From sequence record MK562503: a DNA stretch of 43,630 bases. One strand, 5' to 3'. A model generated the notes under the pieces. The model was not told the origin of the DNA and did no database searches. It worked only from the letters and a program-made list of their open reading frames with translations. Source of the stretch: Shigella phage Buco. Shown piece by piece: positions 2,892 to 21,332 of this stretch (its first letter is position 1; every line of letters starts with the position of its first letter). A program made the position numbers and the translations under genes.

Positions 2892-3244
2892 CGCAAGACC
2901 TAACCCCGCTCACAGTATCGGAGGTAGCGGCGCTGTACTGGCGCATGCTTGAAACCGAGAGCAACGCTGGTTTAACCTGGGATAGCTACAGGAGAATTCC
3001 CGATGAACTCAAACCGCTCTGTCCTTGTGAGCGCCGACTTCGCCACGTTAGAAGAGAGGATGTTGTCTTGCTTGACACCCTCAGAACCTATTCTCCGGAG
3101 TGCGCAGCGCAGTCTCTGGCAAAGCTCCAGTTTCCCATCGTTGCAGAACTTACCACGAGAGGGTACGCCGGAGCATTCAAGGCTTTCAGCAGCGTTCTCA
3201 GACAGTACTACCGGGAGGCGTGCGCAATCCATTATTATGGATGA
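2879..3244 (+). CDS. Early hypothetical protein (121 aa)
   Basis: ORF-track entry; its translation looks more protein-like than the overlapping N-terminal extension of ORF 3003..4961. Confidence 0.55.
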   Translation: MPSLTQDLTPLTVSEVAALYWRMLETESNAGLTWDSYRRIPDELKPLCPCERRLRHVRREDVVLLDTLRTYSPECAAQSLAKLQFPIVAELTTRGYAGAFKAFSSVLRQYYREACAIHYYG

Positions 3245-4961
3245 GCCAGCGTATATCCTCCCCGGGCGAACTATAATCAAAGAGATACTCAACAACCACA
3301 AACAAGAAGAGGTGAAACCAATGCAACTTGAAATTAATGCTAACGCAATCTCTATGTCACTGGTTACCGGTGGCTATCACGATGGGAATGTTTACTACTT
3401 AACTCACGAACTCCCCCTTGAGGAGCTGGCTGATGAGCTGGGCAAGTGGATTAAATCTGAGCACACGCCCGAAGAGGTTATCCTGCGTATGCATCGCACC
3501 TTCTGGTACAGCTACATCGGCCCGGAAATTCTCTTGAGCAGAGACAACCATCCTCGCGGCAGCACAATAGGGCTGCACTGGGAAGATCTAACCGGGGGCA
3601 CGGCCTCAGCAATTCTTACCAAGCTAGGCTGGAAATCAGCTGGTTGGGATCAAGAGATCACTGCTACTAGTCCAGCCGGGCTGGTGCAGGCTGCTCAATC
3701 TCTGCTGCTGGGACATTTTAATCTGGTGCTGCATAAGGATGCGAGTGCTTTTGCTAATGCATTCATTGACGACTACAAGGAGGTAGTCCAAAAAACCGCC
3801 GGGGATATGGGGGTCTACTACAACACAAGCACTGGTCTCTACTCAGTAAAGAAGGTAGATTTAGTTAAGTTGCTTATGAACTTGAACGGGATCTTTGCAA
3901 ACCGGGGTGCAGTGCTGGTTGGCGAAGGCTTCAAAGATGGGAACCCTATGGCTATCCTTGCCCAACCAGTGTTTCGTGATGGGCAGTTGCAGGGCGTGAA
4001 GCTGCAAGAGCAGCGCATGGGGCGCTTCTTGACCAGCATCTTCGGCAACGCGAAAGACTTCCGCCCAGCCATTGATGACCTCAAGGTATACAACAAGAAG
4101 CCCCAGAGCTACCTTTGTGTAACAGAGGAGGAGTGGTATAATGCTTACGAGCAAGGCCCGGGCAGCTGCATGACCGATTATAAGTTTGACTGCTCCCCGG
4201 TGCGCGTCTACGCTACTACATCGCACGGGCTTCCTGATAACGGCCTGCGCCTGTGTATCAACTACACAGGGGAGTTGTTTGGTAAGGGATTCAGGGTGCT
4301 TAATCGCGCCATTGTCAATATTAACACCAAGGAATACGTCCGGGCATACGGTGAAAACGGTGATGCGGTCATGCGCAGCCTGGGTTATGAGCGCGATACT
4401 GGCGCAACCGACGGTGCTATCCTTGCCAAGATTCCGCATCCCCGTAACAACGGTGCGTATCTGATGCCGTATCTGGACGGGTCTGATGATGAAGTTGATG
4501 ACAACGACGATCACTGGGTCATCACATGCAGCGGGGATTATGGCGCTACGGATGCCAACGGATATATCTATGCGGGTGGCCGCTGCTGTGATTGCTGTGA
4601 TGAAAGAGTAGATGAGGATTCACTGACTGAGACAGCAGGTGGGGATGAGGTGTGTGGGGATTGCCTTGCGGAGAACTATGTGGTTCCCTTAGACAGGGAG
4701 GAATACTACCACCGGTGTGATTGCACCCATTCAGAATATGAGGGTGGTTGGGTATATGATAGTGACGTAGTGGATTGCCCAGTGTATGGCTGTGTATATT
4801 ATGGTAATACCATCTTTGCCCAGGGCCAGCGTGTACATGAAGACGCCACTGAGTGGTGCGAGGCGTTAGGTGACCACATCCTGACCGAAGAGGCGGCGGC
4901 CAATCTGGACGAACCTTACTTAGGCAGGGATGAAGAAGATACAGAAGAGGAAGCAGCATAA
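3237..4961 (+). CDS. Large early protein with a Cys-rich, acidic C-terminal region; function unknown
   Basis: In-frame ATG at 3237 overlaps the stop of the previous gene; an alternative start at 3321 has a strong site (gaggtga). C-terminal part carries clustered cysteines (CCDCC, CGDC, CDC, CPVYGC) and an acidic tail. Confidence 0.65.
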   Translation: MDEPAYILPGRTIIKEILNNHKQEEVKPMQLEINANAISMSLVTGGYHDGNVYYLTHELPLEELADELGKWIKSEHTPEEVILRMHRTFWYSYIGPEILLSRDNHPRGSTIGLHWEDLTGGTASAILTKLGWKSAGWDQEITATSPAGLVQAAQSLLLGHFNLVLHKDASAFANAFIDDYKEVVQKTAGDMGVYYNTSTGLYSVKKVDLVKLLMNLNGIFANRGAVLVGEGFKDGNPMAILAQPVFRDGQLQGVKLQEQRMGRFLTSIFGNAKDFRPAIDDLKVYNKKPQSYLCVTEEEWYNAYEQGPGSCMTDYKFDCSPVRVYATTSHGLPDNGLRLCINYTGELFGKGFRVLNRAIVNINTKEYVRAYGENGDAVMRSLGYERDTGATDGAILAKIPHPRNNGAYLMPYLDGSDDEVDDNDDHWVITCSGDYGATDANGYIYAGGRCCDCCDERVDEDSLTETAGGDEVCGDCLAENYVVPLDREEYYHRCDCTHSEYEGGWVYDSDVVDCPVYGCVYYGNTIFAQGQRVHEDATEWCEALGDHILTEEAAANLDEPYLGRDEEDTEEEAA

Positions 4962-6655: not shown

Positions 6656-6857
6656 GATTGAATATACAAGCGCACACCCTACTGTACAGGTAGGTATCCC
6701 GTTTACTTGGGGAATCAACGCTTACTGGTACATCCAAAGCTCCAATGGGTATTTTCTGTGTTTAAATGATGGTAAAGACGTAACGCAATCAATCGATCCG
6801 TACGAAATATTAAGTGAGCGTGGCTTCCGCTACGCTACGAGCATGGAGCTTAAGTAA
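6648..6857 (+). CDS. Hypothetical protein (69 aa)
   Basis: ORF-track entry; ggagc upstream. Confidence 0.5.
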   Translation: MAKIEYTSAHPTVQVGIPFTWGINAYWYIQSSNGYFLCLNDGKDVTQSIDPYEILSERGFRYATSMELK

Positions 6858-7720
6858 TGGCAGACGCCCCGTGGTTAGTAGCGTGCAAGCGCCTTGCCGT
6901 GGGGCAGACGGCCCGGTTCCGGTGCTGCGGCAGGACCCCTGCCGCGGTACTGTACAACAAGCCAGACAGCTGGGGCATGTTCTGCCACCGCTGCAAGAGC
7001 AGCCCGTACGAGAGGAAACAATACGTATCCCTGGTACAGCCCGAGATACTCCCGCGGGTGCTCCCTGCACCTGCACATCTAATCCGCGTTAGCCAGGCGA
7101 CCCCGGAGACGCGGGCACACGTATACAGTTTCATGGTCAGCAAAGGCTTGATGCCGGATATGCTGGAGGATGCATTATGGTCGGAAGAATTGAAGCGCCT
7201 GGTATTTCAAACCGGGCAAGGGACTTATCTAGCCAGGGCGATGTACGAGCATCAGCAGCCGAAGTGGTTGATGCTGGGCGGGGCGCAGAGCTATGCAATA
7301 GCACCTGCCCGGGTTGGAATTGCACAGACGAATGCACACACAACGCATTCAGCCCAAACCGCTGTCGCGGCACCTGCCAAGACACTGGATGCAGCTGCGG
7401 ACGCCGGATTGGTGGTGCTGACCGAGGATTACCTCAGCGCCCGGAAGGTGCAATGGACCAGCGAAAGGTACTCACCACAGGCTACGGTGTTAGCCGTGGC
7501 CTTACTTGGGACGAGGTTACAGCTCGCGTTAAAGAGCAAACTAGTGCAGGCAAACAAGCCCGTATTGTTGATGCTAGACGGGGATGCAGCCGGGGATGCC
7601 GGGACTGCAAGAATAAGTAAGGAGCTGCGCCCGTTCGTGCCGGTGCGGTCATATCAACTCCCTGGGCTAGACCCCAAGGATATGCAGGTACACCAGATTC
7701 TGGAGGGGTTAAATGTTTAA
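6857..7720 (+). CDS. DNA primase (zinc-binding plus TOPRIM-like)
   Basis: N-terminal Cys cluster CCGRTP...CHRC and acidic LMLDGDAAGDAG motif; sits immediately upstream of the helicase. Confidence 0.7.
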   Translation: MADAPWLVACKRLAVGQTARFRCCGRTPAAVLYNKPDSWGMFCHRCKSSPYERKQYVSLVQPEILPRVLPAPAHLIRVSQATPETRAHVYSFMVSKGLMPDMLEDALWSEELKRLVFQTGQGTYLARAMYEHQQPKWLMLGGAQSYAIAPARVGIAQTNAHTTHSAQTAVAAPAKTLDAAADAGLVVLTEDYLSARKVQWTSERYSPQATVLAVALLGTRLQLALKSKLVQANKPVLLMLDGDAAGDAGTARISKELRPFVPVRSYQLPGLDPKDMQVHQILEGLNV

Positions 7721-7910: not shown

Positions 7911-9194
7911 TTGGACTATATCGTAGTTAAGGCCATGTGTACCCGGAAGATATGGCACAGGCTGCGAGAGCAGATACCATCCAGTATGCTGGCACCAGAC
8001 ACGGTGTCTCTGCTGGGCTGGGTGGACCTGTACTGGTCAACGTACCAGGAGCATGCTGAGGTACACGCTGACGCATTCGAGAGCATGCTGAACCTCCGGG
8101 CCGGGGCAGCGCCGAAGGAGCAGATGGATATCCTGCGGCACATGTTCCGAACGGTGCAGCAGGTGCCAGATGATTCAGTGGTGGGTGTAGTACGCACCCT
8201 GAATGAGCTGGCCTACAGTGGGGAGGTGGCGGCGCTAACCCGTAGCTATCAGGACGGGGAGGAAGTAGACTTCATTGCGGAGATGAAGCGGCTTAACCGG
8301 AAGTACGGTGATGGCGCAGCAGTGCAAGACTCCTTGATGGAGTGGGAGTCTGGTTCAGTAGATGATATACTGGCGCAGACAGATGAATCAGGCGGGTTAA
8401 AGCTGAACGTGTTCGGCCAAACCCAGAGGAACATACGAGGTGCTAGAGGTGGTGACTGTATCGCTGTGGCTGCTCCTGTGGATGCTGGTAAAACTAGTCT
8501 CCTCGCTAGTATTGTTGTGGGTTTTGCTGAGCAGATGCAGCAACAGCCCGAGGTCTACGGAAGCCGCCCAATACTATGGCTGGTCAACGAATCCCTTGCG
8601 GCTCGCACTGTGCCGCGTATTTACCAAGCTGCAACGCACTGGACTCTACAGGAGATTCGAGAGCAGCATCAGCACGGTAAGTTTGCCCCGGCCTACCTTA
8701 ACAAGGTGGGTGCGTATGACCGTATTCGCGTTAAGAATGCGCACAGTCTCACTATGGCACAGATTGCAACCCTGATTGAGGAGATGAACCCTGCGGTGCT
8801 GGTCATCGACATGGTTGCAAACGTCCGGGGAGGAACCATGGAGACTGAGCACCAGAACCTGGAGGCGAAGTGGCAGGAGCTGCGCGTGCTTGGCTGTGAG
8901 CACGACTGCGTAATGCTCGGCACCATGCAGTTGTCTGCGGAGGGGTATGACATGCTGTACCCACCGCTGACCGCTATGAAGCAAAGCAAGATTGGCGTGC
9001 AGGGTGCGCTGGACTTAGCCCTGATGATGGGCCGGTTAGACCCGAGCACTAGGCCAGAGATGGTGAACGTACGCGGCATCAGTACACCTAAGAACAAGAT
9101 GGGCTTGTCTGGGTGCGAGTCGTACCTGCAATTCCAAGTGGACTTTCAGGGTGGGCGTTGTAAATTTGACGAAGGGGTAAGTGCTCATGGCTAA
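7911..9194 (+). CDS. Replicative DNA helicase (DnaB/T7 gp4 helicase-like)
   Basis: Walker A-like AAPVDAGKTS and Walker B-like LVIDMV; TTG start at 7911 after aaagaggag (alternative ATG at 7935). Confidence 0.75.
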   Translation: MDYIVVKAMCTRKIWHRLREQIPSSMLAPDTVSLLGWVDLYWSTYQEHAEVHADAFESMLNLRAGAAPKEQMDILRHMFRTVQQVPDDSVVGVVRTLNELAYSGEVAALTRSYQDGEEVDFIAEMKRLNRKYGDGAAVQDSLMEWESGSVDDILAQTDESGGLKLNVFGQTQRNIRGARGGDCIAVAAPVDAGKTSLLASIVVGFAEQMQQQPEVYGSRPILWLVNESLAARTVPRIYQAATHWTLQEIREQHQHGKFAPAYLNKVGAYDRIRVKNAHSLTMAQIATLIEEMNPAVLVIDMVANVRGGTMETEHQNLEAKWQELRVLGCEHDCVMLGTMQLSAEGYDMLYPPLTAMKQSKIGVQGALDLALMMGRLDPSTRPEMVNVRGISTPKNKMGLSGCESYLQFQVDFQGGRCKFDEGVSAHG

Positions 9195-9727: not shown

Positions 9728-10161
9728 TGGAAGATTGCATTGACCACGGCCAATTGGGCGGGGTTGGCGGGTACGGAAGAGTGCGCATGGGTGGCCGGGT
9801 TACTGGTGCCCACCGCAGAGCTTATTGTGAGGCTAACGGTGTTTCGTTGGACGATATAAAGGGGAAGGTTGTGCGCCACCTTTGCGACAACCCACGGTGC
9901 ATTAATGCGGAGCATCTCGCCTTAGGCACCGCAAGCGACAACATGCAAGACCGCAACCGCGGAGTTAATAATCTGCTTGGAGAAAGGAACCCATCAGCCA
10001 AGTTAACAGCCTCGGATGTTGTGGCGATTAGGGCGGCATATAAATCAGGAGAGACTCAAGTATCTATAGCGCGCCGCCTGGGTTTACGTCAGGGCTACAT
10101 CTCAAAAATTATAACGGGGAGAATCTGGAATGAGCAGCAGCATTCTAATCACAGATTATGA
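9727..10161 (+). CDS. Free-standing HNH homing endonuclease with C-terminal helix-turn-helix
   Basis: HNH signature RHLCDNPRCINAEHLALGTASDNMQD, then a DNA-binding-like helical region (SAKLTASDVVAIRAAYKSGETQVSIARRLG). Confidence 0.75.
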   Translation: MEDCIDHGQLGGVGGYGRVRMGGRVTGAHRRAYCEANGVSLDDIKGKVVRHLCDNPRCINAEHLALGTASDNMQDRNRGVNNLLGERNPSAKLTASDVVAIRAAYKSGETQVSIARRLGLRQGYISKIITGRIWNEQQHSNHRL

Positions 10162-12505
10162 AACAGAAAATCATCCATACTATGGAGGGGTAGCTTCCCC
10201 ATACTGTCCTGACAATTACATCGTAGAATCCGCTTGGCGTATTGACCGCACAAATGATGATGGTACGGTCAACGTCGGGGACGTTGGGAGCGTTCGCTAC
10301 AATAGTCGTGAACAGTTCCTCGCTGCACCACCCTCTGAGTGGCTACCGATACCAAGCGATTGCTGGTTAATAGTGGCCCATAACGCGGCTTACGAAATCA
10401 GTTGGTTTTTATCCTTTGCCCGTAAAGAATTTGAGGACTTCTTAAAGAGGGGTGGGCGTGTCTTTGACACAATGCACGGAGAGTACATTGCCACGGACTT
10501 CCAGAGTATGTATCCGAGCTTGGATGAGACGGCTCCTAAGTATGGTGGTACGCACAAGGTAGACGGGGTAAAGATTCTGTGGGAACAGGGTGTGCTCACC
10601 TCGCAGATTGACCCGATGCTATTGCATGACTACCTGGTGAACGGGGATATCCCGAACACCGCGCTGTGCTTCTACGGCCAGTGTGCTATCTTTGCTGAGC
10701 GCGGGCAGATGCAAATGGTCTGGGAGCGTATGGACGCTGTGCTGGCCTGGGCCTACTGTGAGTTCTTCGGATTGTATGTGAACATGCCGGTAGCCCGGGC
10801 GAACCAGGCGGAGCAGGAGCAGCGCATTCAGGAGCTGAAAGAGGAGCTGGGTAAGTACCTGCCGGAACTGCCGGAGACGTTCGAGTTCAACTGGGGTAGT
10901 AACTTCCATATGTCAGCGCTGGTATACGGCGGACCTATCCGGTACAAGCGCAAGGTCCCGTATGACCCGCCGCAGTATGTAAAAGCCGACTATTATAAGC
11001 TCAATAACGGAGAGCTTATAGAGGTAGATGATTGGGACATAGAGGCGTTGGATACTCGGCTAGTGCAGGAGGGCCTGTACCGCGAGGTTTATAGGGCAGG
11101 TAAGAACAAGGGTCGGCCTAAAGTCTTCCGCGCCGACACCGAGGAGGAGAAGCTTAAGTGGGACGACGCTATCTACACCTTCCCGGGCATCGTCAAGATA
11201 GCAGAGTTGCCAGAGCACATCCGGGAGAAGTACAGCGACCGTGGCGAGTTCAGAGGGGCCCAGACACTACCCGACGGCAGTCCGATATACAGTACCAGCG
11301 GGGACGCCATGAACGGCCTGGCGGCCCAGGGGCACGCCTTCGCTAAGTTGGTGAACGAGCTGGCCGGGTTAGAGAAAGACACCGGCACCTACTACCTACG
11401 CACGGAGTACAACAAAGATGGCTCAGTCAAGAAAGTGTCCGGAATGCTCCAGTACGTTATCCCTCAGTCAGGAGACGGGAGCGGCATTATCCATCACAGA
11501 CTCAACACTTGCAGCACTGTCACTGGACGTCTCTCTGCTTCTAACCCAAATCTCCAGAACCTCCCACGAGACGGCACGAGTCGAGTTAAACAAATGTTTA
11601 CTAGCCGTTTCGGCGACGAGGGGCGGATTACAGAAGTCGACTACTCGGCTCTTGAAGTTGTTATGTCCTGTGTGCACACCGGGGACCTCAAGCTCCTAGG
11701 TCTGCTGCTGGATGGTACGGACATGCACTGTTACCGGTTAGCCTTTAAGGAGGGCAAGACCTATGATGAAGTGTACCACCTCTGTCACTCGGATGAGGTT
11801 CCGGTTGAGGTCCATAAACTTTGGAAAGCCATGCGTACCGAGATTAAACCTCCTAGCTTTGCTGCTCAGTACGGCGCTACGGCTAAAGGTATCGCATTCG
11901 CTACCGGATGTACCGTGGAGTATGCCCAGTCATTCCTTGATAATGAAGCCGCACTATTCCCTACCACCATTGGCTTTCGTGATGTAGTCCGGGAGGAAGT
12001 AGAGCGGACCGGGGCAGAGGGGCCAATGTACCGAGAACAGGGTGATGATGGGCAGTGGAGACTGTACCGCATCGGGCACTGGCGTAGCCCCGCCGGTACA
12101 CGCTACAGCTTCCGTCAGAAGCTGCAATGGAAAGCCCCGCCGGGAGGTGGCCGCAAGGTTCAGGTAATGGACTACAAGGGCACAGAGATTGCAAACTACT
12201 GGTGCCAGGGGGAGGCGTTCTTCCTGATGCTGGTGGCCGCCGGGCAGGTTATGCGGGCAATGGTGCAGCGCGACTGGTTCGATGGGCAGGTGTGTCTGAT
12301 TACGAACGTGCACGATGCGTTGTATCTGGACAGCGCCAATCCGGAGGTAGGCCGGGAAGCGAGCCTGTTGGTTAAGCAGTGTATGGAGGATGCGCCTAAA
12401 CGTATCCATGCCCTGTGGCCGGACTACGGCATCATTGGGCAGGTCCCGTTCCCGGCGGAAGCTGAGATGGGTTTGAGCATGTACAGTAAGGAGAAGATTC
12501 AATGA
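10130..12505 (+). CDS. Family A DNA polymerase with N-terminal 3'-5' exonuclease domain
   Basis: 791 aa; exo motif ILITDYETE, then DYSALEVV, RTEIKPPSFAAQYG and VHDALYLD polymerase motifs; ggggaga upstream. Confidence 0.9.
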   Translation: MSSSILITDYETENHPYYGGVASPYCPDNYIVESAWRIDRTNDDGTVNVGDVGSVRYNSREQFLAAPPSEWLPIPSDCWLIVAHNAAYEISWFLSFARKEFEDFLKRGGRVFDTMHGEYIATDFQSMYPSLDETAPKYGGTHKVDGVKILWEQGVLTSQIDPMLLHDYLVNGDIPNTALCFYGQCAIFAERGQMQMVWERMDAVLAWAYCEFFGLYVNMPVARANQAEQEQRIQELKEELGKYLPELPETFEFNWGSNFHMSALVYGGPIRYKRKVPYDPPQYVKADYYKLNNGELIEVDDWDIEALDTRLVQEGLYREVYRAGKNKGRPKVFRADTEEEKLKWDDAIYTFPGIVKIAELPEHIREKYSDRGEFRGAQTLPDGSPIYSTSGDAMNGLAAQGHAFAKLVNELAGLEKDTGTYYLRTEYNKDGSVKKVSGMLQYVIPQSGDGSGIIHHRLNTCSTVTGRLSASNPNLQNLPRDGTSRVKQMFTSRFGDEGRITEVDYSALEVVMSCVHTGDLKLLGLLLDGTDMHCYRLAFKEGKTYDEVYHLCHSDEVPVEVHKLWKAMRTEIKPPSFAAQYGATAKGIAFATGCTVEYAQSFLDNEAALFPTTIGFRDVVREEVERTGAEGPMYREQGDDGQWRLYRIGHWRSPAGTRYSFRQKLQWKAPPGGGRKVQVMDYKGTEIANYWCQGEAFFLMLVAAGQVMRAMVQRDWFDGQVCLITNVHDALYLDSANPEVGREASLLVKQCMEDAPKRIHALWPDYGIIGQVPFPAEAEMGLSMYSKEKIQ

Positions 12506-13073: not shown

Positions 13074-13095
13074 ATCTGTGAAACAGGCCCTAATA

Positions 13096-13115
13096 GAATT
13101 CCACGGTATAGTACG
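13096..13115 (+). promoter_or_regulatory. Phage-promoter-like motif P2 (ttcCACGGTATAGtacgac)
   Basis: Shares the CACGGTATAG core (13102..13111) with P1, P3 and P4; followed by aggaga at 13120..13125 and a TTG start at 13132. Confidence 0.5.
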
Positions 13116-13131
13116 ACACAGGAGAACTACC

Positions 13132-14118
13132 TTGGCAAAGACCAGTCTAATTAAGTTGTGGACCAAAGAGCAGCACCAGGCAATCCTGGGTCGCTATTTA
13201 AACAATGAACGGGCAGCAGAAGAGTACAACAGCACCTACGTTGTACACGGCTGCGGCAACCCGGTATCCAGGCAGCTGGTGCGCTACTGGCGCAGCATCT
13301 TCATCGACAATGGCGGCAGCAAAGCGAAGGCTAATCATGGCTTACAAGAAGCGCGCAAACTCATTCAGCCAAGTCCCACTGATGATATTGGAGCTACTCT
13401 GGTTCCTGATGTTTGTCATCGGATTCTCGTCGTTGGGGATTTGCATGCTCCTTATACCCACGCTGATGCTCTTGAGTTTCTAAAGTCCGTCCGGGATGAA
13501 TACTGCCCGGACATGGTTATTCAGGTGGGTGACGAAACGGACGGACACGCAATCAGCTTCCATGACTCCGACCCGAACCTGGACAGCGCCGGGGTGGAGC
13601 TGGAGAAGGCTAAGGTAATTCTGGAGGACGTGCATGCGCTCTTCCCGAATCTACTCGTGTGCGACTCAAATCACGGGAGTCTTGTGTATCGTCGCGCCAA
13701 GGCTCACGGTCTACCGGTACAATTCATCAAGAAGTACCGGGATATTCTGTTTCCTGAGCACGGGGCACCGTCATGGAGTTGGGCGGATGCGTGGGTGCTC
13801 AACACGCCTCTTGGTCCGGTACGCTTCCAGCACCAAGTGTCAGGCGACTTTATGCTTAATGCGTCGCATGAGCGGACCAGTCTGGTTCTTGGTCACGAGC
13901 ACGGGCGATTCGAGGTACAGTACGCCGCTTCCAGCACCGCGCTGTATTTTGGCGCTTACGCAGGGTGCCTTATTGACCGCAAATCGCTTGCATTCGCATA
14001 CGGTAAGTTAACCCGTAAGAAACCAATCCTGGGCGTGATGGTTATCACTGAGGGTTGTCCACAATTAATTCCCATGCTACTCGACGATTCCGGTAGGTGG
14101 GTTGGGAGGGCTAAGTAA
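13132..14118 (+). CDS. Calcineurin-like metallophosphoesterase (possible DNA repair exonuclease or phosphatase)
   Basis: Motifs GDLHAPY, GDETDGH, CDSNHGS, GHEHG. No in-frame ATG precedes the first motif, so the TTG at 13132 is taken as start (alternative GTG at 13078). Confidence 0.7.
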   Translation: MAKTSLIKLWTKEQHQAILGRYLNNERAAEEYNSTYVVHGCGNPVSRQLVRYWRSIFIDNGGSKAKANHGLQEARKLIQPSPTDDIGATLVPDVCHRILVVGDLHAPYTHADALEFLKSVRDEYCPDMVIQVGDETDGHAISFHDSDPNLDSAGVELEKAKVILEDVHALFPNLLVCDSNHGSLVYRRAKAHGLPVQFIKKYRDILFPEHGAPSWSWADAWVLNTPLGPVRFQHQVSGDFMLNASHERTSLVLGHEHGRFEVQYAASSTALYFGAYAGCLIDRKSLAFAYGKLTRKKPILGVMVITEGCPQLIPMLLDDSGRWVGRAK

Positions 14119-14309: not shown

Positions 14310-14368
14310 TCCGTTGCGCTCTGCATCTGCACGTAAATTTTATTTAATCTAAACGAGGACGTAATTAT

Positions 14369-15208
14369 ATGACTACTGCTTTTAACCCACTGGCTAACCT
14401 TGGTTCCCTGGTAGACGCTGCTATCGCCACTCAGTCTGTGGATATGACCCAGACCGGGGCAGGTGGCTTCGAGGATGTGCTGCTGCCGAAAGGTGAATAC
14501 TACGGCCACTTTGTTGAGTACGTAGAGTACGGTAAGCGTATTCCGACCAACAAGGGTAAGCCGACTGGTAAACCGGCAGTGCTGAATACCCGCGTATGCT
14601 TCATTGTATACGGCCCTGACGGTGTTAAGAAGCGCATTCGCTCCTGGTATTTGCCAGTGTTCAACTCTGAGCGCGCCAACTTCAAGAAGCTGTTTGACCG
14701 CCTGAACTGCGGTGGGGACATTCAACATGCCGCGCAGAAACTGGGTACGGCCTGGGTTATCCCGGTGGACCAGCATACTTCTGCAACTGGCAATACCATC
14801 AATATCATCGACTACGCAACCATCCGACCGCTGCCGAAATTTGACCCGAACACCGGACAGCCTATCGCTATCCCGGACCTGGACCCGGAGGACGTACGTA
14901 TCTTCCTGTGGAACAATCCGACTAAGGAGACCTGGGATAGCCTCTTCATTGACGGTAAGAAGGATGACGGCACCAGCAAGAACTTCATTCAGGAAGATAT
15001 CATGAAGGCTGTGGACTTCGAAGGTTCACCGTTGCAGCAGATGCTGACCGGGGGTATCCCATCACCGGAAAGTATGGCACCGGTGGCACCCGCAGCACAG
15101 GTAGCTCCGACGGCTCCAGCAGCTCCGGTCAGCCCGGTGGCCCCGGCTGCGCCTGCCGCACCAGTGGCACCACAGGCTCCGCAAGCCCCGGCAGCACCGA
15201 CTGCCTGA
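14369..15208 (+). CDS. Hypothetical protein with Pro/Ala-rich low-complexity C-terminal tail
   Basis: 279 aa; acgaggac upstream; the last roughly 45 residues are APVAPAAQVAPTAPAAPVSPVAPAAPAAPVAPQAPQAPAAPTA. Confidence 0.65.
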   Translation: MTTAFNPLANLGSLVDAAIATQSVDMTQTGAGGFEDVLLPKGEYYGHFVEYVEYGKRIPTNKGKPTGKPAVLNTRVCFIVYGPDGVKKRIRSWYLPVFNSERANFKKLFDRLNCGGDIQHAAQKLGTAWVIPVDQHTSATGNTINIIDYATIRPLPKFDPNTGQPIAIPDLDPEDVRIFLWNNPTKETWDSLFIDGKKDDGTSKNFIQEDIMKAVDFEGSPLQQMLTGGIPSPESMAPVAPAAQVAPTAPAAPVSPVAPAAPAAPVAPQAPQAPAAPTA

Positions 15209-15279
15209 ACTCCTGACGACTACTGGTCTGATGATTGCCCCTTCTAATTAAAGGGCCCCACGGGGTCCCTGGAGATTAT

Positions 15280-15534
15280 ATGAACCTGATTAAGATTTTA
15301 GTTAAGCTGCTGGACAAAGCCTACCATGCGGAAGCCCGTAAACATCAGAGGGCAGCAGATAAGCACGCTGCCGATTCCCAACGCCACCACCAGGCGGCGG
15401 AGCAACTGCGTGCACAAGCAGCTGCCGCTGTAGGTGCCGGGGTTTCCAGCGCGCGTAGCTCTGAGCTCGCGTATAATCGGGCCAAGAAGATCCAGGCCAA
15501 AGCCGCCCAAGTATCCCAGTTCTTCACTGTGTAA
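15280..15534 (+). CDS. Hypothetical helical basic protein (84 aa)
   Basis: Internal ATG of ORF 15235..15534 preceded by ggaga. Confidence 0.5.
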   Translation: MNLIKILVKLLDKAYHAEARKHQRAADKHAADSQRHHQAAEQLRAQAAAAVGAGVSSARSSELAYNRAKKIQAKAAQVSQFFTV

Positions 15535-15903: not shown

Positions 15904-16084
15904 ACTATCTATTCTTTTTGCTGCTCCAGCAGGGCTGCTTATGGCCACCGGTATTGTTCTACTGGGCCTGGGCGGCCTGATTGCTGGGCAAGGTTTCTTA
16001 CGCCCCACTCGTATCCTTTCAGAAGAATTCCGAGATGCCTTGGTCACAGCCAAGGCGCGCCTCCTGGCGAGTAGGCGCAAATGA
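15893..16084 (+). CDS. Small membrane protein (63 aa)
   Basis: ATG at 15893 after caggag; hydrophobic core LSILFAAPAGLLMATGIVLLGLGGLIAG. Confidence 0.45.
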   Translation: MRSKLSILFAAPAGLLMATGIVLLGLGGLIAGQGFLRPTRILSEEFRDALVTAKARLLASRRK

Positions 16085-17025
16085 TTATCCGGGGGCTGGA
16101 CCTAGCGAATCTGGGGGAACAGCTAGCCCCCGCCAACCCCGGTAAGGTATTGCTGCTGGACGGGGACTTCCTGGTGTACAAGGCAGCGGCAACTGTCAAG
16201 ACCCTGCCTACCGCTATCCGGCGCTTCTACCAGCTGGTGCTGGAGGAGATGTTTCTGGTTGGGGTGCAAGAGTGCTTCGTGTATCTGACTCCCACTGGGT
16301 GTGCTAAGTGCAACCGCTGGCATCTGCCGACGGTGAAGCCCTACCAGGGACAGCGGGCTAATCGCGTGGAGCTGCCCCTTAAGGGACCTCTGAAAACGCA
16401 CCTATTGAATAACCCGGACGAGTACAGCAGCCAGAATATTCAGGTAGTCGGGAGCATGTTCTATGAAGCTGATGACCTGATAGTAATGGACTCCTACGCT
16501 TTCAAGGAGCGCTGCATCGTTAGCTCCGGGGATAAGGACCTATGGTTAAGTCCCTGGGCCAGGATGAATGCGGAGACCGGAGAGGTCTGGGCACCGCTGG
16601 AGGACTCCTACGGCTGGATTGAGTGGGATGAGACCAAGGCTATGCCTGTGCGTGGGCACGGTCTGAAGTTCTTCTGGTGGCAAATGCTGGCTGGGGATGA
16701 GGCAGATAACATCAAAGGCATCCGTACGCTGCATGGGCGGCTCTGTGGCAAGGCTACGGCCTTCCAGGCTATCAACCCTATGGCTACAGCGGACGAGGCC
16801 GCAGAGCTCGTTATAGGAGCTTACGCAGCAATCAATCAAGACCCCTTAGCTGAGGCTGAGGCACTGTTTCTGAGACGGCATGAGCGGGACTCTGGTTATG
16901 AGTACATTATGTCGGTGCTGGCTAATCCTGCTTACAGGGACTGGCTCACCAGTCTCAGGGATTATCACACACAGCACATTCAGTATGTGCAGGAGCTTTC
17001 GCTTTATGGCATCGAAGAAACGTAG
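16081..17025 (+). CDS. 5'-3' exonuclease (FEN/T7 gene 6-like)
   Basis: N-terminal LLDGDFLVYKAA, acidic GDKDL, and GDEADNIKGI helix-hairpin-helix-like motif. Confidence 0.75.
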   Translation: MIIRGLDLANLGEQLAPANPGKVLLLDGDFLVYKAAATVKTLPTAIRRFYQLVLEEMFLVGVQECFVYLTPTGCAKCNRWHLPTVKPYQGQRANRVELPLKGPLKTHLLNNPDEYSSQNIQVVGSMFYEADDLIVMDSYAFKERCIVSSGDKDLWLSPWARMNAETGEVWAPLEDSYGWIEWDETKAMPVRGHGLKFFWWQMLAGDEADNIKGIRTLHGRLCGKATAFQAINPMATADEAAELVIGAYAAINQDPLAEAEALFLRRHERDSGYEYIMSVLANPAYRDWLTSLRDYHTQHIQYVQELSLYGIEET

Positions 17026-17212: not shown

Positions 17213-17457
17213 TTAAGCACGGCGACACCTATCGAGTAGATATTGTACGTCCTTACATAGCAAAACCTAATGCACCTGGAATCTCCTATGCAGGTGACTT
17301 TCCTTACTGGTGGCCGCACTCCTGGTCTGTAAACTATGGCGGATATGTACTCTTCTTTGCAGCCAAACCTACGCGTAAGCAAATTCGTAAGATGGTGAGA
17401 TGGGTGCGGGACAGTTTACCATATGATAAACATCCGGAGGATGCGCCGTGGCATTAA
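17206..17457 (+). CDS. Hypothetical protein (83 aa)
   Basis: ORF-track entry; ggggaga upstream. Confidence 0.5.
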   Translation: MLIKHGDTYRVDIVRPYIAKPNAPGISYAGDFPYWWPHSWSVNYGGYVLFFAAKPTRKQIRKMVRWVRDSLPYDKHPEDAPWH

Positions 17458-17879
17458 GGAAGGTTACCCGGGGTCAAATCCGGGCCGTAGCAATGCGCCT
17501 GGCAAAGGAGCAGGGTGGGGTGTGCCCCCTCTGCTTTGAGCCTTTGGACTTCTCAATCAAGGGGGTGACTGGTGATTCAGTTGTCGTCGACCACTGCCAT
17601 ATCACGGGCAGAATCCGAGGTGCTCTGCACCGCTCATGTAATGGCGGGGAGGGTAAAGTGGCCTCCGCCGCTGGGCGGTGGGTGGTGGGTAGTATGCAGT
17701 CTACTGCTGCTATTGCTACTGCGCTACGTCGTATCGCTGACTACCTAGACAAGGAACCGTCGGACCTGGTATACTATACGCATAAAACGCCGGAAGAAGC
17801 TGCTGCCGCATTGAAGATGCGCGCGCGCCGCCGCCGAGTCCAACGTAAGGCAAGAGAGGTTATCAAGAGTGTTCAATAA
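17448..17879 (+). CDS. Endonuclease VII-family resolvase
   Basis: CPLC...DHCHITGRIRGALHRSCNGGEG matches the T4 endonuclease VII zinc/His-Me signature; GTG start after ggagga. Confidence 0.75.
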   Translation: MALRKVTRGQIRAVAMRLAKEQGGVCPLCFEPLDFSIKGVTGDSVVVDHCHITGRIRGALHRSCNGGEGKVASAAGRWVVGSMQSTAAIATALRRIADYLDKEPSDLVYYTHKTPEEAAAALKMRARRRRVQRKAREVIKSVQ

Positions 17880-18354
17880 ACCTATCATAGTATTTGACCT
17901 GGATGGTACGCTGGCAGACGGGCGTCATCGCCTGCATCTTCTGCCAAAGAAGGATTACCACCTTACCGAATCCTGGACGGAGTTTAATCTCGCTGCGGTG
18001 GATGACCTCCCTATTAGGGATAACATCGTGCTTTGTAATGCACTGTACCAGCATTACTACATCATTATCCTAACCGGTCGCAGCGATGTTGCTGGGCAAG
18101 TTACTCGCCAGTGGCTGCAAAAACACGGTGTGATGTATAGTGAGTTGATTATGCGTAAGCAGACGGATAATCGGAAGGATGTACAGATTAAAGAGGAAGA
18201 GCTGCGTAGAATTGGATTAGACCAGATTCTGTGCTGCTTCGACGACTTACCGCACGTAGCCTATCACATGCGTGGCCTGGGACTGACCTGTCATCTGGTC
18301 ACCCACTACGAAGAGCTGCGTACTGACCTAGTGTCACATGGAGAAGATAAATGA
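17869..18354 (+). CDS. HAD-superfamily phosphatase (nucleotidase or 3'-phosphatase-like)
   Basis: N-terminal FDLDGTL motif and later aspartates; 161 aa. Confidence 0.6.
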   Translation: MFNKPIIVFDLDGTLADGRHRLHLLPKKDYHLTESWTEFNLAAVDDLPIRDNIVLCNALYQHYYIIILTGRSDVAGQVTRQWLQKHGVMYSELIMRKQTDNRKDVQIKEEELRRIGLDQILCCFDDLPHVAYHMRGLGLTCHLVTHYEELRTDLVSHGEDK

Positions 18355-18821
18355 AAGCTATCTGTATAGAGCCAGTTCGCAATCTCACCAAAGGTGCGGT
18401 GTATGATATCCGTCCTGTAGATGCAACGTATGTAAAATTAATTATGGATGATGGCTCAGAGAGAGAGTTGTTTGCCCGCCGCTTCCAACCTTTCACTGAG
18501 GCGGTAGCGTCTCCGCAGCCAGATCTGAAGTACGACCAAGGCAAACCTCGCATGTCCTTGCTGTTAAGTGGCTGCCCGCTGGCCCTGGAGGCGGTGGGGC
18601 AGGTGCTGACCTTCGGCGCGCAGAAGTACGAGGCCCATTCCTGGCAGACGGTGGACAACGGACGGGAGCGCTACGAGAGCGCACTCATGCGGCATCTGCT
18701 CGCTATCGGTAAAGGTGAGGACAGAGATAGTGAATCCGGCCTGCATCACCTGGCGCACGCCGCCTGCAATGCCCTGTTTATTCTGGAACTTGAACTTCGT
18801 AAGCAGCAAGCAAAACAATAA
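18351..18821 (+). CDS. Hypothetical protein, possible nucleotide pyrophosphohydrolase-like helical domain
   Basis: Pattern KYDQGKPRMSLL...FGAQKYEAHSWQ...RYESALMRHLLA...GLHHLAHAACNALFILE; family assignment is from memory and tentative. Confidence 0.5.
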   Translation: MKAICIEPVRNLTKGAVYDIRPVDATYVKLIMDDGSERELFARRFQPFTEAVASPQPDLKYDQGKPRMSLLLSGCPLALEAVGQVLTFGAQKYEAHSWQTVDNGRERYESALMRHLLAIGKGEDRDSESGLHHLAHAACNALFILELELRKQQAKQ

Positions 18822-18826
18822 CTATT

Positions 18827-18835
18827 TGATATAAT
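18827..18835 (+). promoter_or_regulatory. Extended -10 element (TGaTATAAT) just upstream of the RNAP start
   Basis: Perfect TATAAT at 18830..18835 preceded by TG at 18827..18828; no good -35 hexamer. Confidence 0.25.
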
Positions 18836-18851
18836 GGGAGAATATGCGCCT

Positions 18852-21332
18852 ATGACTAGCGCCCCGCTGTTCACTTATCAGTTCCACGGCACTGACGTTA
18901 CAGAAGCACAGGTACAGCGCCAGGCTCAGCTGGAGCAGGACTACCGCACCCGCGGCCTTGACCGCTCCCGGAGACTGGTACGCGAAGCTATTGAGTCCGG
19001 CAGAGTATCGACGCTACCGGCGGCACAGCGTCTGATTGCTGCCGCTTATGATACGGTAGCGCTCCAGCTGGATCGTATCAAAGCAGAGAAGGCCCCGGGG
19101 GTCGGTGGCCGCTACCGCGCGCTGCTTCGACAGGTGCCGACCACGGTGCTTGCCGCGCTGTCCCTGACTAAGTGCATTGACCTCATGGCGTGTGGGAACG
19201 GGCACAGCACCAACAGCTCTGCGCAGTCGGTTATGTCCGCACTGGGCCGACTGGTGGAATCTGAGCTGCTGAGCATTCAGCTGAAGGCCGTGGCTCCGGC
19301 GTACATGAACAGGGTGCACGAGTATCTGAAAGAGCGCCACACTAAGAACTCGTCGCATATTCTCCAGACCTACCGGGCGTCAGCAGAGAACGTACACTTC
19401 AACCACGAGAACTGGAGCAATGCCCAGTGCATCTCCGTTGGCCGGTTGCTGATGCAGGCAGTATACAGCACTGGCATGTTCCAGTGGCGCAAGGGTTCTG
19501 ATGCTAGCCAGCTTACGTACCTGGAACCCTCTGAGGAGGTGCAGGGGGTGCTAACGGACCTGGTACAGAATGCAGACTCAGTGACATACAAGCCGCCGAT
19601 GCTGGTGCCGCCGCTGGCGCATGAGACAATCTTCTCTGGCGGGTACATTACGGACATTGACCGGCGCGGTACTTACAAGAACACCCAAATAACGCGCAGG
19701 CAGCTCCGTGACGTGGCGAACAGCTTCAAGGAAGCCCAGGGTATTAAAGACGCTCTGAACCGCGCACAGAGCGTCCCATACCGTATAAACAAGGGTATGC
19801 TGGAACTGGTGCGAGAGGCTCAGCGCCTCGGGGTGGCTGTAGGTATGCCCAGCACTAACCCAGCACCGAAGCCGCAGTGGTATCTGGACGGGGTGCCAAA
19901 GGAGACCTACAGTGAGCGCCAGCTTGACGACTTCAATGAGTGGAAGCTCATGATGCGCGAGTGGTACAACGAGGACCGTACCCGTATCAGCCAGCTCCGC
20001 CAAGTGGCCCGTACCCTGCAAATGTCTGAGGAGTTTAAAGATGAGCCAGCCCTGTACTTCCCGACCTGTGTGGACTGGCGATATCGCGTCTACTTCAAAT
20101 CCTCCCTGCATCCCCAGGGTTCTGATTTGCAGAAAGCCCTGCTGTGTTTTGGGCGCGGAAAGGCCCTTGGCGCACGCGGGTTATTCTGGCTTAAGGTACA
20201 CGTCGCTACATGCTTTGGTTATGACAAAGCCTTATTCGAGCAGCGTGCAGCTTGGGCTGATGCAAACTATGCAATCATTGAACAGGTTGCAGATAACCCC
20301 TTTGATTCTGAGTCTTTTAAACTTGCCGATTCGCCGTGGTGTTTCCTTGCGGCATGTATCGACCTGGTTAATGCTACCCGCTCTGGCAGCCCGGAGCAGT
20401 ATGTATCGCACATCCCAGTCGCTATGGACGCTACAAACTCTGGTGGGCAGCACTTCTCCGGAATGCTCCGAGACCCGGTAGGCGGACGCTTAACGAACCT
20501 GTTCTGGGAAGGCAACGAGGAGAAGGCGGACCTGTACATGGACGTGAAGCAGCGTACAGACTCCAAGGTTATCATGGATTTAGCTAATCCAGACTTCGTG
20601 GTACAGGCGCACTACTGGATGGAGAATAGCATCACCCGTACCATGACCAAGCGCCCGAGCATGACCTACTTCTACAGCGCCACGGTGCGCTCCTGTAGCG
20701 ACTACATCGTTACCGGCGCTAAGGGGGAGGGCTATGAGGGCACGGAGGAATACAGTCTCTGGAAGCTGGCAGGTTATCTGGCCCCGCGTATGCGCAACGC
20801 TATCGAGGAGGCCAACCCGGCAGCGGCGGCAGCTATGCATTACTTGCAGCAGGTGGCCCGACGGGTCCCGGTGAAGCTGCATCTGCAATGGAAAACCCCG
20901 TTAGGTGGGCTCGTTATCAATCGTTATACCGAGTCTAAGGAGACCCGTGTCCGCATCGACAGCATGAACCTGACGTCTCTGCTGGCATACAACCGGGACT
21001 ACGAAATTAATAACAGGAAGAAGGCCGCTTCCGGCATCGCTCCGAACTTTGTGCATAGTCTGGATGGTACGCATCTTATGATGGTTATCACTGCATTTAG
21101 CGGCGATATCGTGCCTATTCACGACTCGTTGGCGACACATGCTTGTGACGTTGATGAGATGCACCGGGTAATCCGTGAGCAGTTCGTGAAGCTGTATACC
21201 GAGAACGACCCTCTGCAAACCGTAGCTGATGCAGCAGTAGCAGTAGGCGCTGACCTATCAGGTATCGAAATGCCGGAACATGGCAGACTGGACCTGCGGC
21301 AAGTGCTTGATTCGCCCTTCTTTTTCTGCTAA
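18852..21332 (+). CDS. Single-subunit DNA-dependent RNA polymerase (T7 RNAP-like)
   Basis: About 826 aa; catalytic motifs PVAMDATNSGGQHFSGMLRD and IHDSLATHA. Start taken at the ATG with gggagaa upstream; ORF opens at 18834. Confidence 0.9.
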   Translation: MTSAPLFTYQFHGTDVTEAQVQRQAQLEQDYRTRGLDRSRRLVREAIESGRVSTLPAAQRLIAAAYDTVALQLDRIKAEKAPGVGGRYRALLRQVPTTVLAALSLTKCIDLMACGNGHSTNSSAQSVMSALGRLVESELLSIQLKAVAPAYMNRVHEYLKERHTKNSSHILQTYRASAENVHFNHENWSNAQCISVGRLLMQAVYSTGMFQWRKGSDASQLTYLEPSEEVQGVLTDLVQNADSVTYKPPMLVPPLAHETIFSGGYITDIDRRGTYKNTQITRRQLRDVANSFKEAQGIKDALNRAQSVPYRINKGMLELVREAQRLGVAVGMPSTNPAPKPQWYLDGVPKETYSERQLDDFNEWKLMMREWYNEDRTRISQLRQVARTLQMSEEFKDEPALYFPTCVDWRYRVYFKSSLHPQGSDLQKALLCFGRGKALGARGLFWLKVHVATCFGYDKALFEQRAAWADANYAIIEQVADNPFDSESFKLADSPWCFLAACIDLVNATRSGSPEQYVSHIPVAMDATNSGGQHFSGMLRDPVGGRLTNLFWEGNEEKADLYMDVKQRTDSKVIMDLANPDFVVQAHYWMENSITRTMTKRPSMTYFYSATVRSCSDYIVTGAKGEGYEGTEEYSLWKLAGYLAPRMRNAIEEANPAAAAAMHYLQQVARRVPVKLHLQWKTPLGGLVINRYTESKETRVRIDSMNLTSLLAYNRDYEINNRKKAASGIAPNFVHSLDGTHLMMVITAFSGDIVPIHDSLATHACDVDEMHRVIREQFVKLYTENDPLQTVADAAVAVGADLSGIEMPEHGRLDLRQVLDSPFFFC

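Follow-up and report, generated by a model that had tools for sequence, protein, structure and literature searches.

The window analyzed here, the whole stretch of 43,630 nucleotides from Shigella phage Buco (sequence record MK562503), is a complete genome of the KP34/phiKMV-like Autographivirales. Between the genes for DNA polymerase (10130-12505) and exonuclease (16081-17025), the ORF list contains a reading frame at 14369..15208 on the plus strand, which starts with ATG and encodes 279 amino acids, exactly as an earlier note made from the sequence had described it. We found the following features at this locus.

14355..14359, plus strand: ribosome-binding site GAGGA, 9 nt 5' of the ATG (direct sequence reading).
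[quoted passage not shown]
14387..14467, plus strand: N-terminal helix (aa 7-21), then at aa 24-33 a flexible stretch with the conserved sequence V-D-M-T-(E/Q)-T-G-x-G-G (AlphaFold, alignment).
14492..14809, plus strand: predicted OB-fold core, aa 42-147 (beta strands 42-57, 71-81, 87-91, 128-137 and 143-147; inserted helix 104-112).
14816..15058, plus strand: highly conserved C-terminal subdomain, aa 150-230 (conserved residues; pLDDT 84-95).
15074..15205, plus strand: Pro/Ala linker, aa 236-279, with 13 x-A-P triplets, uncharged and predicted to be disordered (composition, spacing, pLDDT 55-77).
15206..15208, plus strand: UGA stop in the context GCC UGA ACU, proposed to be leaky (TGA/TAA comparison of relatives, Qbeta context).
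15209..15244, plus strand: in-frame extension of 12 codons, TPDDYWSDDCPF, an acidic/aromatic SSB-like tip predicted for a 292-aa isoform only (homologs, codon bias).
15245..15247, plus strand: second stop, TAA, end of the putative read-through isoform (sequence).
15253..15269, plus strand: GC-rich hairpin in the intergenic region, GGGCCCC-ACG-GGGTCCC, lacking a U tract; beyond it lie GGAG (15271) and the start codon ATG (15280) of the next gene.

The 279-aa protein matched the profile of PHROG 862 with an E of 2.7e-70, its residues 11-272 being aligned with profile positions 7-272 of 276. The family, which corresponds to NCBI PHA02030 and includes gp26 of KP34 and gp21 of phiKMV and LUZ19, had a homolog in 899 phage records and comprised 1284 clusters at 50% identity (E <= 1e-3). 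Its members are nearly always labelled "hypothetical", and no assignment of the family as SSB was found in the literature, of which our coverage was incomplete. Some GenBank and UniRef records bear the product names "large tegument protein", "Fe-S oxidoreductase", "levansucrase" or "oxidoreductase", and these names are the sole support for the idea that the protein is structural or enzymatic. We regard this idea as extremely improbable. Neither Pfam nor the NCBI-style and PDB sequence searches returned a match to any such family; the matches that exist (AKAP14, a collagen peptide and a tail-fiber PHROG with an E of 0.027) all fall within the Pro/Ala tail and are low-complexity artefacts. Moreover, only two Cys and no cluster motif occur in the 279 residues, and the gene is located in the replication block, not in the virion block.

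The AlphaFold2 model (mean pLDDT of 83, with 86-97 for the core residues 41-220) is predicted to contain an OB-like beta barrel with the five strands that define an OB fold. Residues 22-40, which include the conserved N-terminal motif (D25 invariant; M26, G32 and G33 nearly invariant), have low pLDDT values. By analogy with PrgE's N-terminal tail, this arm may contribute to oligomerisation or cooperativity (PMC11137577). The C-terminal subdomain carries the motifs LPKFDPxTG, LFLWNxPTKETWDSL and SKNFIQEDIxxAxDFxGSPLQxLL, in which P156, F179, W181, P184, W189, D190, N205, Q208, G219 and S220 are invariant or nearly so; it is specific to the family, with no counterpart in PrgE or in classical SSBs. 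The earlier note had reported no ligase motif KxDG. As to the letters, a KDDG string does exist at K198; its place is a variable loop, however, and homologs have not conserved it, so that the conclusion drawn from its supposed absence stands: an ATP-dependent DNA ligase was ruled out by the OB-like fold, the lack of ligase matches and the non-conserved KDDG.

No match at E <= 0.001 was obtained by Foldseek against the PDB, and the weak matches listed were mostly bacterial and mitochondrial SSBs, PriB, PRD1 P12 and the gene V protein. A structural resemblance to DUF669 phage proteins was detected in BFVD (E of about 3e-5); the 279-aa protein and 21 aligned members had no Pfam profile match to DUF669. 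Among the OB-fold proteins tested, the closest structural neighbour was PrgE-like. PrgE is an OB-fold ss/dsDNA-binding protein of the Enterococcus faecalis plasmid pCF10 (PDB 8S4S/8S4T) with a sequence identity of 7% to the Buco protein. Being 144 aa long, it lacks the 80-residue C-terminal subdomain, the Pro/Ala linker and the acidic tip, and it is encoded on a plasmid and does not belong to a phage replisome. An HHpred match to 8S4T, the DNA-bound form of PrgE (PMC11137577), had been noted independently by those who deposited Cronobacter phage Peggy, the closest isolate. This match was not reproduced in our comparison of family alignment A2 with the single PrgE sequence by hhalign (probability of 0.3%), and the link to PrgE rests on structure. 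Both dsDNA and ssDNA are bound by PrgE, which the authors of that work refrained from labelling an SSB (PMC11137577).

The arrangement DNA polymerase, PHROG 862 gene, 5'-3' exonuclease was kept in every subfamily checked (9 annotated phages), and was seen in KP34, phiKMV, Friunavirus, Percyvirus, Sukuvirus, Cuernavacavirus, Mguuvirus and a Xanthomonas phage. Furthermore, a subset of the family members bears canonical SSB tips fused to the protein, such as ...EDDIPF in JG068 and ...DFDDDTPF in P0110, as well as those in P0164, P0247, P0252 and P0269. Fused acidic/aromatic ends were found in 32 of 150 diverse representatives, four of which end in ...DDDIPF. The PHROG 862 protein resembles E. coli-type SSB (tip ...DFDDDIPF) in its three-part layout, namely an OB core, a disordered, Pro-rich linker and an acidic/aromatic tip, which in Buco lies beyond the TGA, and many of the homologs end, like bacterial SSB, in literal ...DDDIPF, ...DDIPF or ...DDDTPF. 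Altogether, the gene most likely encodes the SSB of the phage, a member of a divergent OB-fold family that would bind DNA. The earlier note had guessed at the SSB or annealing protein of the replication module, and had named homology to a non-DNA-binding enzyme as the observation that would speak against this guess; the SSB alternative gained support from the predicted fold, the synteny and the tips of the homologs, and no enzyme was matched in Pfam or the PDB.

Known SSB families were not retrieved at the sequence level. Pfam gave no match at E <= 10, PF00436 included, for the 279-aa protein or any of the 21 aligned members, and sequence and profile searches of the PDB returned no SSB, only low-complexity or chance matches. 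Membership in the T7 gp2.5 family was ruled out, as the family alignments A1 and A2 gave no signal in hhalign (probability of 0.1%). T7 gp2.5, the SSB and annealing protein of the type autographivirus, has the function predicted here for the PHROG 862 protein in a related replisome with a T7-like polymerase, primase, helicase, exonuclease and endonuclease, and has an acidic C-terminal tail with an aromatic end (...DEDGDF). This acidic tail is essential for the contacts of gp2.5 with polymerase and helicase.

In favour of an SSB, Gp21 of LUZ19 is one of the most abundant early/middle proteins (PMC3604761). As a point against it, host growth ceased when Gp21 was expressed, and transcription and translation fell by 20-25%, with host DNA synthesis unaffected; the authors considered a possible role in host shutoff (PMC3604761). 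The PHROG 862 protein might be no replication SSB but an abundant early OB-fold protein for host takeover or general DNA coating, which binds DNA (ds/ss) or RNA, shuts down host functions, is toxic in its own right and contacts host proteins with its Pro/Ala tail. We consider this quite improbable. In every lineage examined the gene lies inside the replication block and not among the early host-takeover genes, and the DDDIPF tips that many homologs carry would make little sense if the protein did not fill the niche of an SSB. A scan of 20 early/replication-region ORFs of the window yielded no other SSB candidate, and toxicity would be expected from over-expression of a foreign SSB.

The protein of Buco ends in a Pro/Ala tail, residues 236-279 (nt 15074..15205), which reads MAPVAPAAQVAPTAPAAPVSPVAPAAPAAPVAPQAPQAPAAPTA. 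Its 44 residues, close to the about 45 of the earlier note, comprise 19 Ala and 13 Pro arranged in x-A-P triplets, with no charged residue, and the Pro are spaced by exactly 3 residues except for one gap of 6. The tail is no product of chance: after the same conserved core, a low-complexity tail is present in all 120 homologs listed and in the diverse set of 150 representatives. It is Pro/Ala-rich in the 120 close homologs; in the diverse set, the comparison among related phages that the earlier note had proposed gave a median P+A content of 0.35 and a median length of 53 aa. The DNA encoding the tail had been called correspondingly repetitive, which did not hold beyond a biased composition: the sole unit detected by Tandem Repeats Finder was 9 bp x 2, at 15120-15138, and different codons are used side by side (Ala: GCA 9, GCT 5, GCC 4, GCG 1; Pro: CCG 8, CCA 3, CCC 1, CCT 1). 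These two observations rule out that the tail originated from tandemly repeated DNA; it is in the protein that the repeat is maintained.

The 279-aa product ends with the uncharged ...APAAPTA. Past its TGA, the frame stays open for 12 codons until TAA, a point missed in the earlier note, and the predicted read-through product would end with ...DDYWSDDCPF; this hidden tip, present only beyond the TGA, shares D, D, P and F with ...DDDIPF of bacterial SSB. To compare this arrangement among relatives, we used an alignment-based scan of viral contigs, since a scan with the single protein gave only 3 loci. A meaningful in-frame continuation was found in 20 of the 20 relatives in which the first stop is TGA and in none of the 63 with TAA. 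The continuation is an acidic/aromatic tip in 18 of the former and a start-less DUF4326 domain in the remaining 2. When only a short acidic/aromatic extension is counted among these 83 relatives, the figures are 17/20 for TGA and 0/63 for TAA (Fisher p = 6e-15, related sequences being counted as independent); the three TGA relatives left over, Peggy, L012 and L056, fit the pattern as well, as described below. The cultured phages LIMElight, Zoomie, Micant and PhiM1 also possess the TGA and the tip. In the phylogeny, the lineages with TGA and tip span the whole Enterobacterales-phage clade and tip-less TAA clades are nested inside. No hidden tip was found in phiKMV, KP34 or four distant Pro/Ala-ended lineages, and the arrangement is restricted to a clade as far as the sequences compared are concerned.

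Could the TGA be a true stop of a tip-less SSB, and the codons downstream the decaying relic of a fused tip that was lost, as in KP34 and phiKMV, and is not usefully translated? Whole clades function without any tip, the relatives with fused tips make an uninterrupted ancestor plausible, and the extension of the L024/Zoomie lineage is shortened and ends with ...DWGW. In addition, wild Enterobacterales may read through UGA at a low basal rate. We regard such a relic as unlikely on the following grounds. The extension is open and acidic/aromatic with a Pro-hydrophobic end across lineages of which the cores are 38-65% identical. Extensions homologous to that of the window are present in L011, L013 and Peggy. 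Within the extensions, substitutions are concentrated at third codon positions (15/14/43 at the first, second and third), and one serine has switched between AGC and TCG; the extensions evolve like coding sequence. In front of them the first stop is without exception TGA, neither TAG nor TAA having been seen there, despite TGG to TAG being an equally easy mutation. Between L064 and L075-77, all changes in the extension are synonymous, and similarity ends immediately past the second stop; recombination breakpoints (L064 vs L075) lie after the second stop and not the first.

Two further cases bear on this issue. In Peggy the TGA lies inside the tip (WDSWDD|TGA|NNYPLI), and L013 has TGG at that site but its own TGA five codons upstream, at the junction of linker and tip. 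The position of the stop was thus shifted with one TGA kept, which is hard to reconcile with decay, and the interchange of TGA and TGG fits the insertion of Trp. L012 and L056 possess, directly after the TGA, a complete DUF4326 (Pfam E = 1e-25, profile positions 2-82 of 82) with no ATG, GTG or TTG in its first 20 codons. The two copies differ by 26 synonymous and 13 non-synonymous codons, a ratio that points to purifying selection on the domain, again unexpected of a relic. L056 is the only TGA member of the otherwise all-TAA KP34 clade, and it is this member that has the downstream in-frame domain. DUF4326 is a predicted ADP-ribose-phosphate-processing domain.

TGA is the ordinary stop of 13 of the 50 genes in the window, where the continuations look random, and no tRNA gene is present in the window; these findings rule out genome-wide recoding of UGA or a suppressor tRNA of the phage. 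Frameshifting need not be invoked, as the extension is in frame 0, and an error of sequencing or assembly at the TGA was excluded by the same arrangement in independent assemblies and cultured phages. A stimulatory RNA structure 3' of the UGA was not supported, the stability of the hairpin against shuffled sequence giving a z of -1.2. Comparable hairpins occur 3' of the second stop in L011, L013, Peggy and L075-77. Because the hairpin lies beyond the second stop, is not significantly more stable than shuffled sequence and is absent from LIMElight, it is unlikely to stimulate read-through. In 15 of the 20 TGA cases the stop is followed by A; Engelberg-Kulka is said to have found in 1981 that a 3' A favours UGA read-through.

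From the comparison of relatives, we infer a programmed UGA read-through that gives a tip-less and a tipped isoform. We propose the following model. The OB-fold core, which carries the family-specific C-terminal subdomain, would bind DNA, and the uncharged Pro/Ala stretch of ~44 residues would serve as a flexible linker, probably polyproline-II-like. The terminal acidic/aromatic tip would recruit partners, possibly the polymerase or helicase of the phage, or proteins of the host that bind SSB. In Buco and its relatives among Enterobacterales phages, this tip would lie behind a leaky UGA: most ribosomes would stop there and release the tip-less 279-aa protein, and perhaps a few per cent would insert Trp and produce the 292-aa isoform. 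As the tip lies beyond a leaky UGA, probably only a small share of the molecules carries it, and the ssDNA coat would then present a low, genetically set density of partner-binding tips. We judge the two parts of this proposal taken together, a replicative SSB and a tip gated by read-through to give two isoforms, to be reasonably probable. The large KP34 and phiKMV clades have neither a tip nor a hidden extension, which shows that the core function does not require the tip. A free ...IPF carboxylate end is lacking in most of the hidden tips (e.g., ...TPLM, ...YPMQ and ...PFN), and may thus not bind the host SSB interactome.

The closest parallel to the proposed decoding is the coat gene of Qbeta, of which the stop TAC TGA ACT, decoded by tRNA-Trp, is annotated in the GenBank record with about 5% read-through. 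A1 of Qbeta resembles the predicted Buco product both in the UGA + A context (GCC TGA ACT in Buco) and in the output of a major short and a minor extended product. On the other hand, Qbeta is an ssRNA phage with a 196-aa capsid-domain extension, whereas we deal here with a replication protein of dsDNA phages that would be extended by 6-16 aa or, in two relatives, by DUF4326; and read-through is known in Qbeta but deduced for Buco from comparative data. Recoding of E. coli dnaX also yields two replisome isoforms, tau and gamma, which differ in a C-terminal interaction module. In dnaX, a -1 frameshift truncates the product at roughly 1:1, whereas stop read-through in Buco would extend it, probably in a few per cent of the molecules. 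No report of read-through in a phage SSB was found in the literature, again with incomplete coverage. If our proposal is correct, this would be the first programmed read-through in a replication protein of a dsDNA phage and in any SSB, and would add a rare example of programmed stop-codon read-through in bacterial viruses.

On balance, we lean towards regarding the proposed leaky UGA, placed where the linker of the SSB ends, both as a genetically set dial for the tipped fraction and as a docking socket for domains. If it is a dial, one codon would tune the recruitment of replisome and repair factors, TGA giving few tips, a sense codon giving tips on all molecules and TAA giving none; all three states, the TGA-gated tip, the fused tip and TAA without a tip, are present in the family. 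If it is a socket, whole domains would be appended to a sub-population of SSB, as would have occurred at least twice with DUF4326. Functional extensions as short as these, and even an entire domain like DUF4326, will systematically escape gene-calling programs. The phiKMV-, KP34-, Friunavirus- and Limelight-like phages are among those most used in therapy against Pseudomonas, Klebsiella and Acinetobacter, and if the PHROG 862 protein is assigned as the SSB lacking so far, the replisome of this very large phage group would be complete. The tip behind the stop codon also raises a testable question of how many partner-binding tails an SSB-coated strand needs or tolerates, for which nature has apparently built the variants with tips on all, few and none of the molecules within one family.

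Shigella phage Buco has a complete KP34/phiKMV-like autographivirus genome of 43,630 bp, with all substantial ORFs on the + strand. Among cultured phages, Cronobacter phage Peggy is the closest; its homolog is 84% identical to the 279-aa protein. The gene lies in the following replication block.

Replication genes of the window
6857-7720, +, primase
7911-9194, +, DnaB-like helicase
10130-12505, +, DNA polymerase
13078-14118, +, metallophosphoesterase
14369-15208, +, gene under study (predicted SSB)
16081-17025, +, 5'-3' exonuclease
17448-17879, +, endonuclease VII
17869-18354, +, polynucleotide-kinase-like phosphatase
18834-21332, +, RNA polymerase

The largest early-region gene without assignment (3003-4961; 652 aa) matched only the unknown-function PHROGs 6980 and 13313. 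The 156-aa ORF at 18351-18821, in the position of phiKMV gp25, matched several PHROGs whose labels disagree ('dATP/dGTP pyrophosphohydrolase' versus 'endolysin; inhibits RNA polymerase'). The first and last 127 nt of the window (1-127 and 43504-43630) are the same sequence at 100% identity. They may form a short terminal direct repeat of the phage, or may be an overlap that the assembler left on circularising the contig, maximum k-mers of 127 being common.

No Pfam match was found with the 279-aa protein; PHROG 862 ('unknown function') matched it end to end (E = 2.7e-70). The protein is KP34 gp26 and phiKMV/LUZ19 gp21. Homologs were found in 899 phage records, the hosts being Klebsiella, Pseudomonas, Acinetobacter, Pectobacterium, Vibrio, Ralstonia, Rhizobium, Xanthomonas, Burkholderia, Caulobacter, and others, and the core profile search yielded 1284 clusters at 50% identity. 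In every annotated genome examined, the homolog sits between DNA polymerase and 5'-3' exonuclease and is labelled 'hypothetical'. Other GenBank/UniRef records name homologs 'large tegument protein', 'Fe-S oxidoreductase', 'oxidoreductase', 'levansucrase (levS)', or 'DNA polymerase'; all of these look like misannotations that were first made on low-complexity hits in the Pro/Ala tail and then passed on.

As the earlier note described, the ORF at 14369-15208 opens with ATG and comprises 279 codons (ORF list); a ribosome-binding site, GAGGA, was read from the sequence at 14355-14359 (+). Residues 236-279, MAPVAPAAQVAPTAPAAPVSPVAPAAPAAPVAPQAPQAPAAPTA, comprise 19 Ala and 13 Pro and are uncharged, with Pro every three residues except for one gap of six. 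The Pro/Ala tail reported in that note is thus present, but the DNA is not correspondingly repetitive: its composition is biased, and TRF found only 9 bp x 2, no tandem repeat. As the Ala and Pro codons are of mixed usage and no tandem repeat is present, selection therefore works on the peptide. A low-complexity tail follows the same conserved core in every one of the homologs listed (n=120) and of the diverse representatives (n=150); it is Pro/Ala-rich in close homologs, and has a median length of 53 aa and a median P+A of 0.35 in the representatives. The ligase KxDG motif, noted as absent, occurs literally as KDDG at aa 198 but is not conserved in homologs.

The AlphaFold2 model, built from an alignment of 32 sequences, had a mean pLDDT of 83 (86-97 for residues 41-220) and contained an OB-type beta barrel.

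Features of the AlphaFold2 model
aa 7-21, N-terminal helix
after this helix, flexible segment with the conserved motif VDMT(E/Q)TGxGG
strands 42-57, 71-81, 87-91, 128-137, and 143-147, beta barrel with an inserted helix
aa 150-230, very conserved C-terminal subdomain
after this subdomain, disordered tail

Independently, those who annotated phage Peggy noted an HHpred hit of their homolog to 8S4T, PrgE bound to DNA (PMC11137577); profile comparison of the family with PrgE and with T7 gp2.5 found no link. Judged from the model, the protein belongs to a separate OB-fold family, with moderate likeness to its ssDNA-binding nearest neighbours. Foldseek against BFVD also matched the model to Xanthomonas phage Xp10 protein 37L and to several DUF669 phage proteins (E 1e-10 to 1e-5), which hints at a wider phage OB-fold superfamily including DUF669.

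Bacterial SSB characteristically ends in the hexapeptide DDDIPF, a tip that docks SSB-interacting proteins. Fused acidic/aromatic ends were found in 32 of the 150 diverse representatives (PF ends, n=12; PY ends, n=4), including ...DDDIPF in four homologs (P0164, P0247, P0252, and P0269), ...DDIPF, and ...DDDIPY. Burkholderia phage JG068 gp20 ends in ...GIDLEDDIPF and the homolog P0110 in ...SIDFDDDTPF. The family is therefore built like bacterial SSB, with an OB core and a tip joined by a disordered linker, which is the Pro/Ala tail. Of the two options guessed earlier, SSB or annealing protein, the SSB is backed by the OB-type model, the SSB-type tips on homologs, and the lack of a detectable second SSB among the 20 scanned early/replication-region ORFs. 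We regard the 279-aa protein as likely the phage SSB, or at least the ssDNA-coating OB-fold protein of the phage, DNA binding being deduced from prediction and comparison. LUZ19 Gp21 is among the most abundant late-early proteins and toxic if expressed alone (PMC3604761), and this toxicity leaves room for a host-directed role.

Another C-terminal motif that recurs, ...(D/E)DPLA(G/A)(I/L/M) or ...DALADLGL(DL), is distinct from the DDDIPF tip and occurs in homologs of alpha- and beta-proteobacterial phages (loci L006, L007, L008, and L009; proteins P0132, P0174, P0192, P0198, P0216, P0246, P0258, and P0264), where it presumably docks a different partner.

Past the TGA at 15206-15208, the reading frame of the predicted SSB gene continues with ACT CCT GAC GAC TAC TGG TCT GAT GAT TGC CCC TTC TAA, translated as TPDDYWSDDCPF*. 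Relatives share this arrangement with differing peptides.

In-frame continuations after a first stop TGA in relatives
locus L011, TLADYWSDDCPFN
locus L013, DSWDDWNNYPFN
Proteus PM75-like, NDADWCDDTPLM
Pantoea phage LIMElight, NSDVINQRDWDEPIPL
Erwinia phage Micant, KHDVVNQTDWGAETPL
Erwinia phage Zoomie, KSDVVNQSDWGW
Enterobacter/Salmonella group, TPAQLDFETYPMQ
locus L084, NDSEWVQEPISLI
Pectobacterium phage PhiM1, GDEWDGYANL

Sorted by first stop, 17 of the 20 TGA relatives carried a short tip-type extension versus none of the 63 TAA relatives (83 in total; the Fisher test treats kin as independent). One of the three exceptions, Peggy, has its TGA within the tip, ...AGWDSWDD|TGA|NNYPLI|TAG (8838-8873 of its locus, L001). 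L013 has TGG at this position, and its own TGA stands where linker and tip meet, five codons upstream; such an interchange is expected if UGA is decoded as Trp. Half of the tip is therefore already part of the annotated Peggy protein, which would gain six residues by read-through.

In the other two exceptions (L012 and L056), a complete DUF4326 directly follows the TGA in frame (E = 1e-25, profile positions 2-82 of 82), located at 1423-1700 of ENA SHEN23 scaffold_978 (L012) and in IMGVR_UViG_3300045988_011332 (L056). Both copies lack a start codon and were missed by the gene caller. The domain is conserved from one copy to the other, which differ by 26 synonymous against 13 non-synonymous codons (10/4/28 by codon position), and the arrangement occurs in two different clades. 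Judged from sequence, read-through appears to be the only route by which DUF4326 is made, as a fusion to the SSB linker. The role proposed for this domain is the processing of phosphates of ADP-ribose derivatives (PMC9503650).

Differences within the extensions were distributed 15/14/43 over codon positions 1/2/3 and included an AGC<->TCG serine switch. Between the loci L064 and L075-77, the extension changes were synonymous only, and the sequence past the second stop was unrelated. Judged by these substitutions, the extensions evolve as coding sequence. In the neighbour-joining tree of homolog cores, lineages with TGA and tip spread across the whole Enterobacterales-phage clade, with the tip-less TAA clades (KP34, L079/82/85, and Vibrio) nested among them. 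L056 is the sole TGA member of the KP34 clade and also the one with a downstream domain.

TGA is the normal stop in 13 of 50 window genes, with random-looking continuations; the window encodes no tRNA gene, and no stimulatory RNA structure was evident at the UGA. Its context, GCC TGA ACT, is similar to the leaky Qbeta coat stop, TAC TGA ACT (annotated ~5%). We consider the UGA at 15206-15208 probably leaky in function, on comparative grounds. Most of the product would then be the 279-aa form without a tip, next to a minor form of 292 aa that ends in ...A-W-TPDDYWSDDCPF. A literature search with incomplete coverage found no paper assigning the PHROG 862 family or describing such read-through.

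A GC-rich hairpin without a U tract (15253-15269) lies between the second stop and the ribosome-binding site of the next gene. L011, L013, Peggy, and L075-77 have similar hairpins at this place. The hairpin may serve RNase III or mRNA stability, or may make the phage polymerase pause. The next ORF was called mechanically at 15235-15534 from a TTG at 15235, and PHROG 5965 matches from residue 16. With GGAG at 15271 and ATG at 15280, the true start is probably 15280, in which case this small gene does not overlap the read-through extension.

Altogether, the tip is fused, absent, or gated within the family, and is dispensable, as KP34 and phiKMV show. The canonical ...IPF ends suggest host SSB-binding proteins as partners; the variable gated tips (...PLM, ...PMQ, and ...PFN) point rather to co-evolving phage proteins. 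The three states suggest a tunable trait, namely how densely partner-binding tips stand on the SSB coat.
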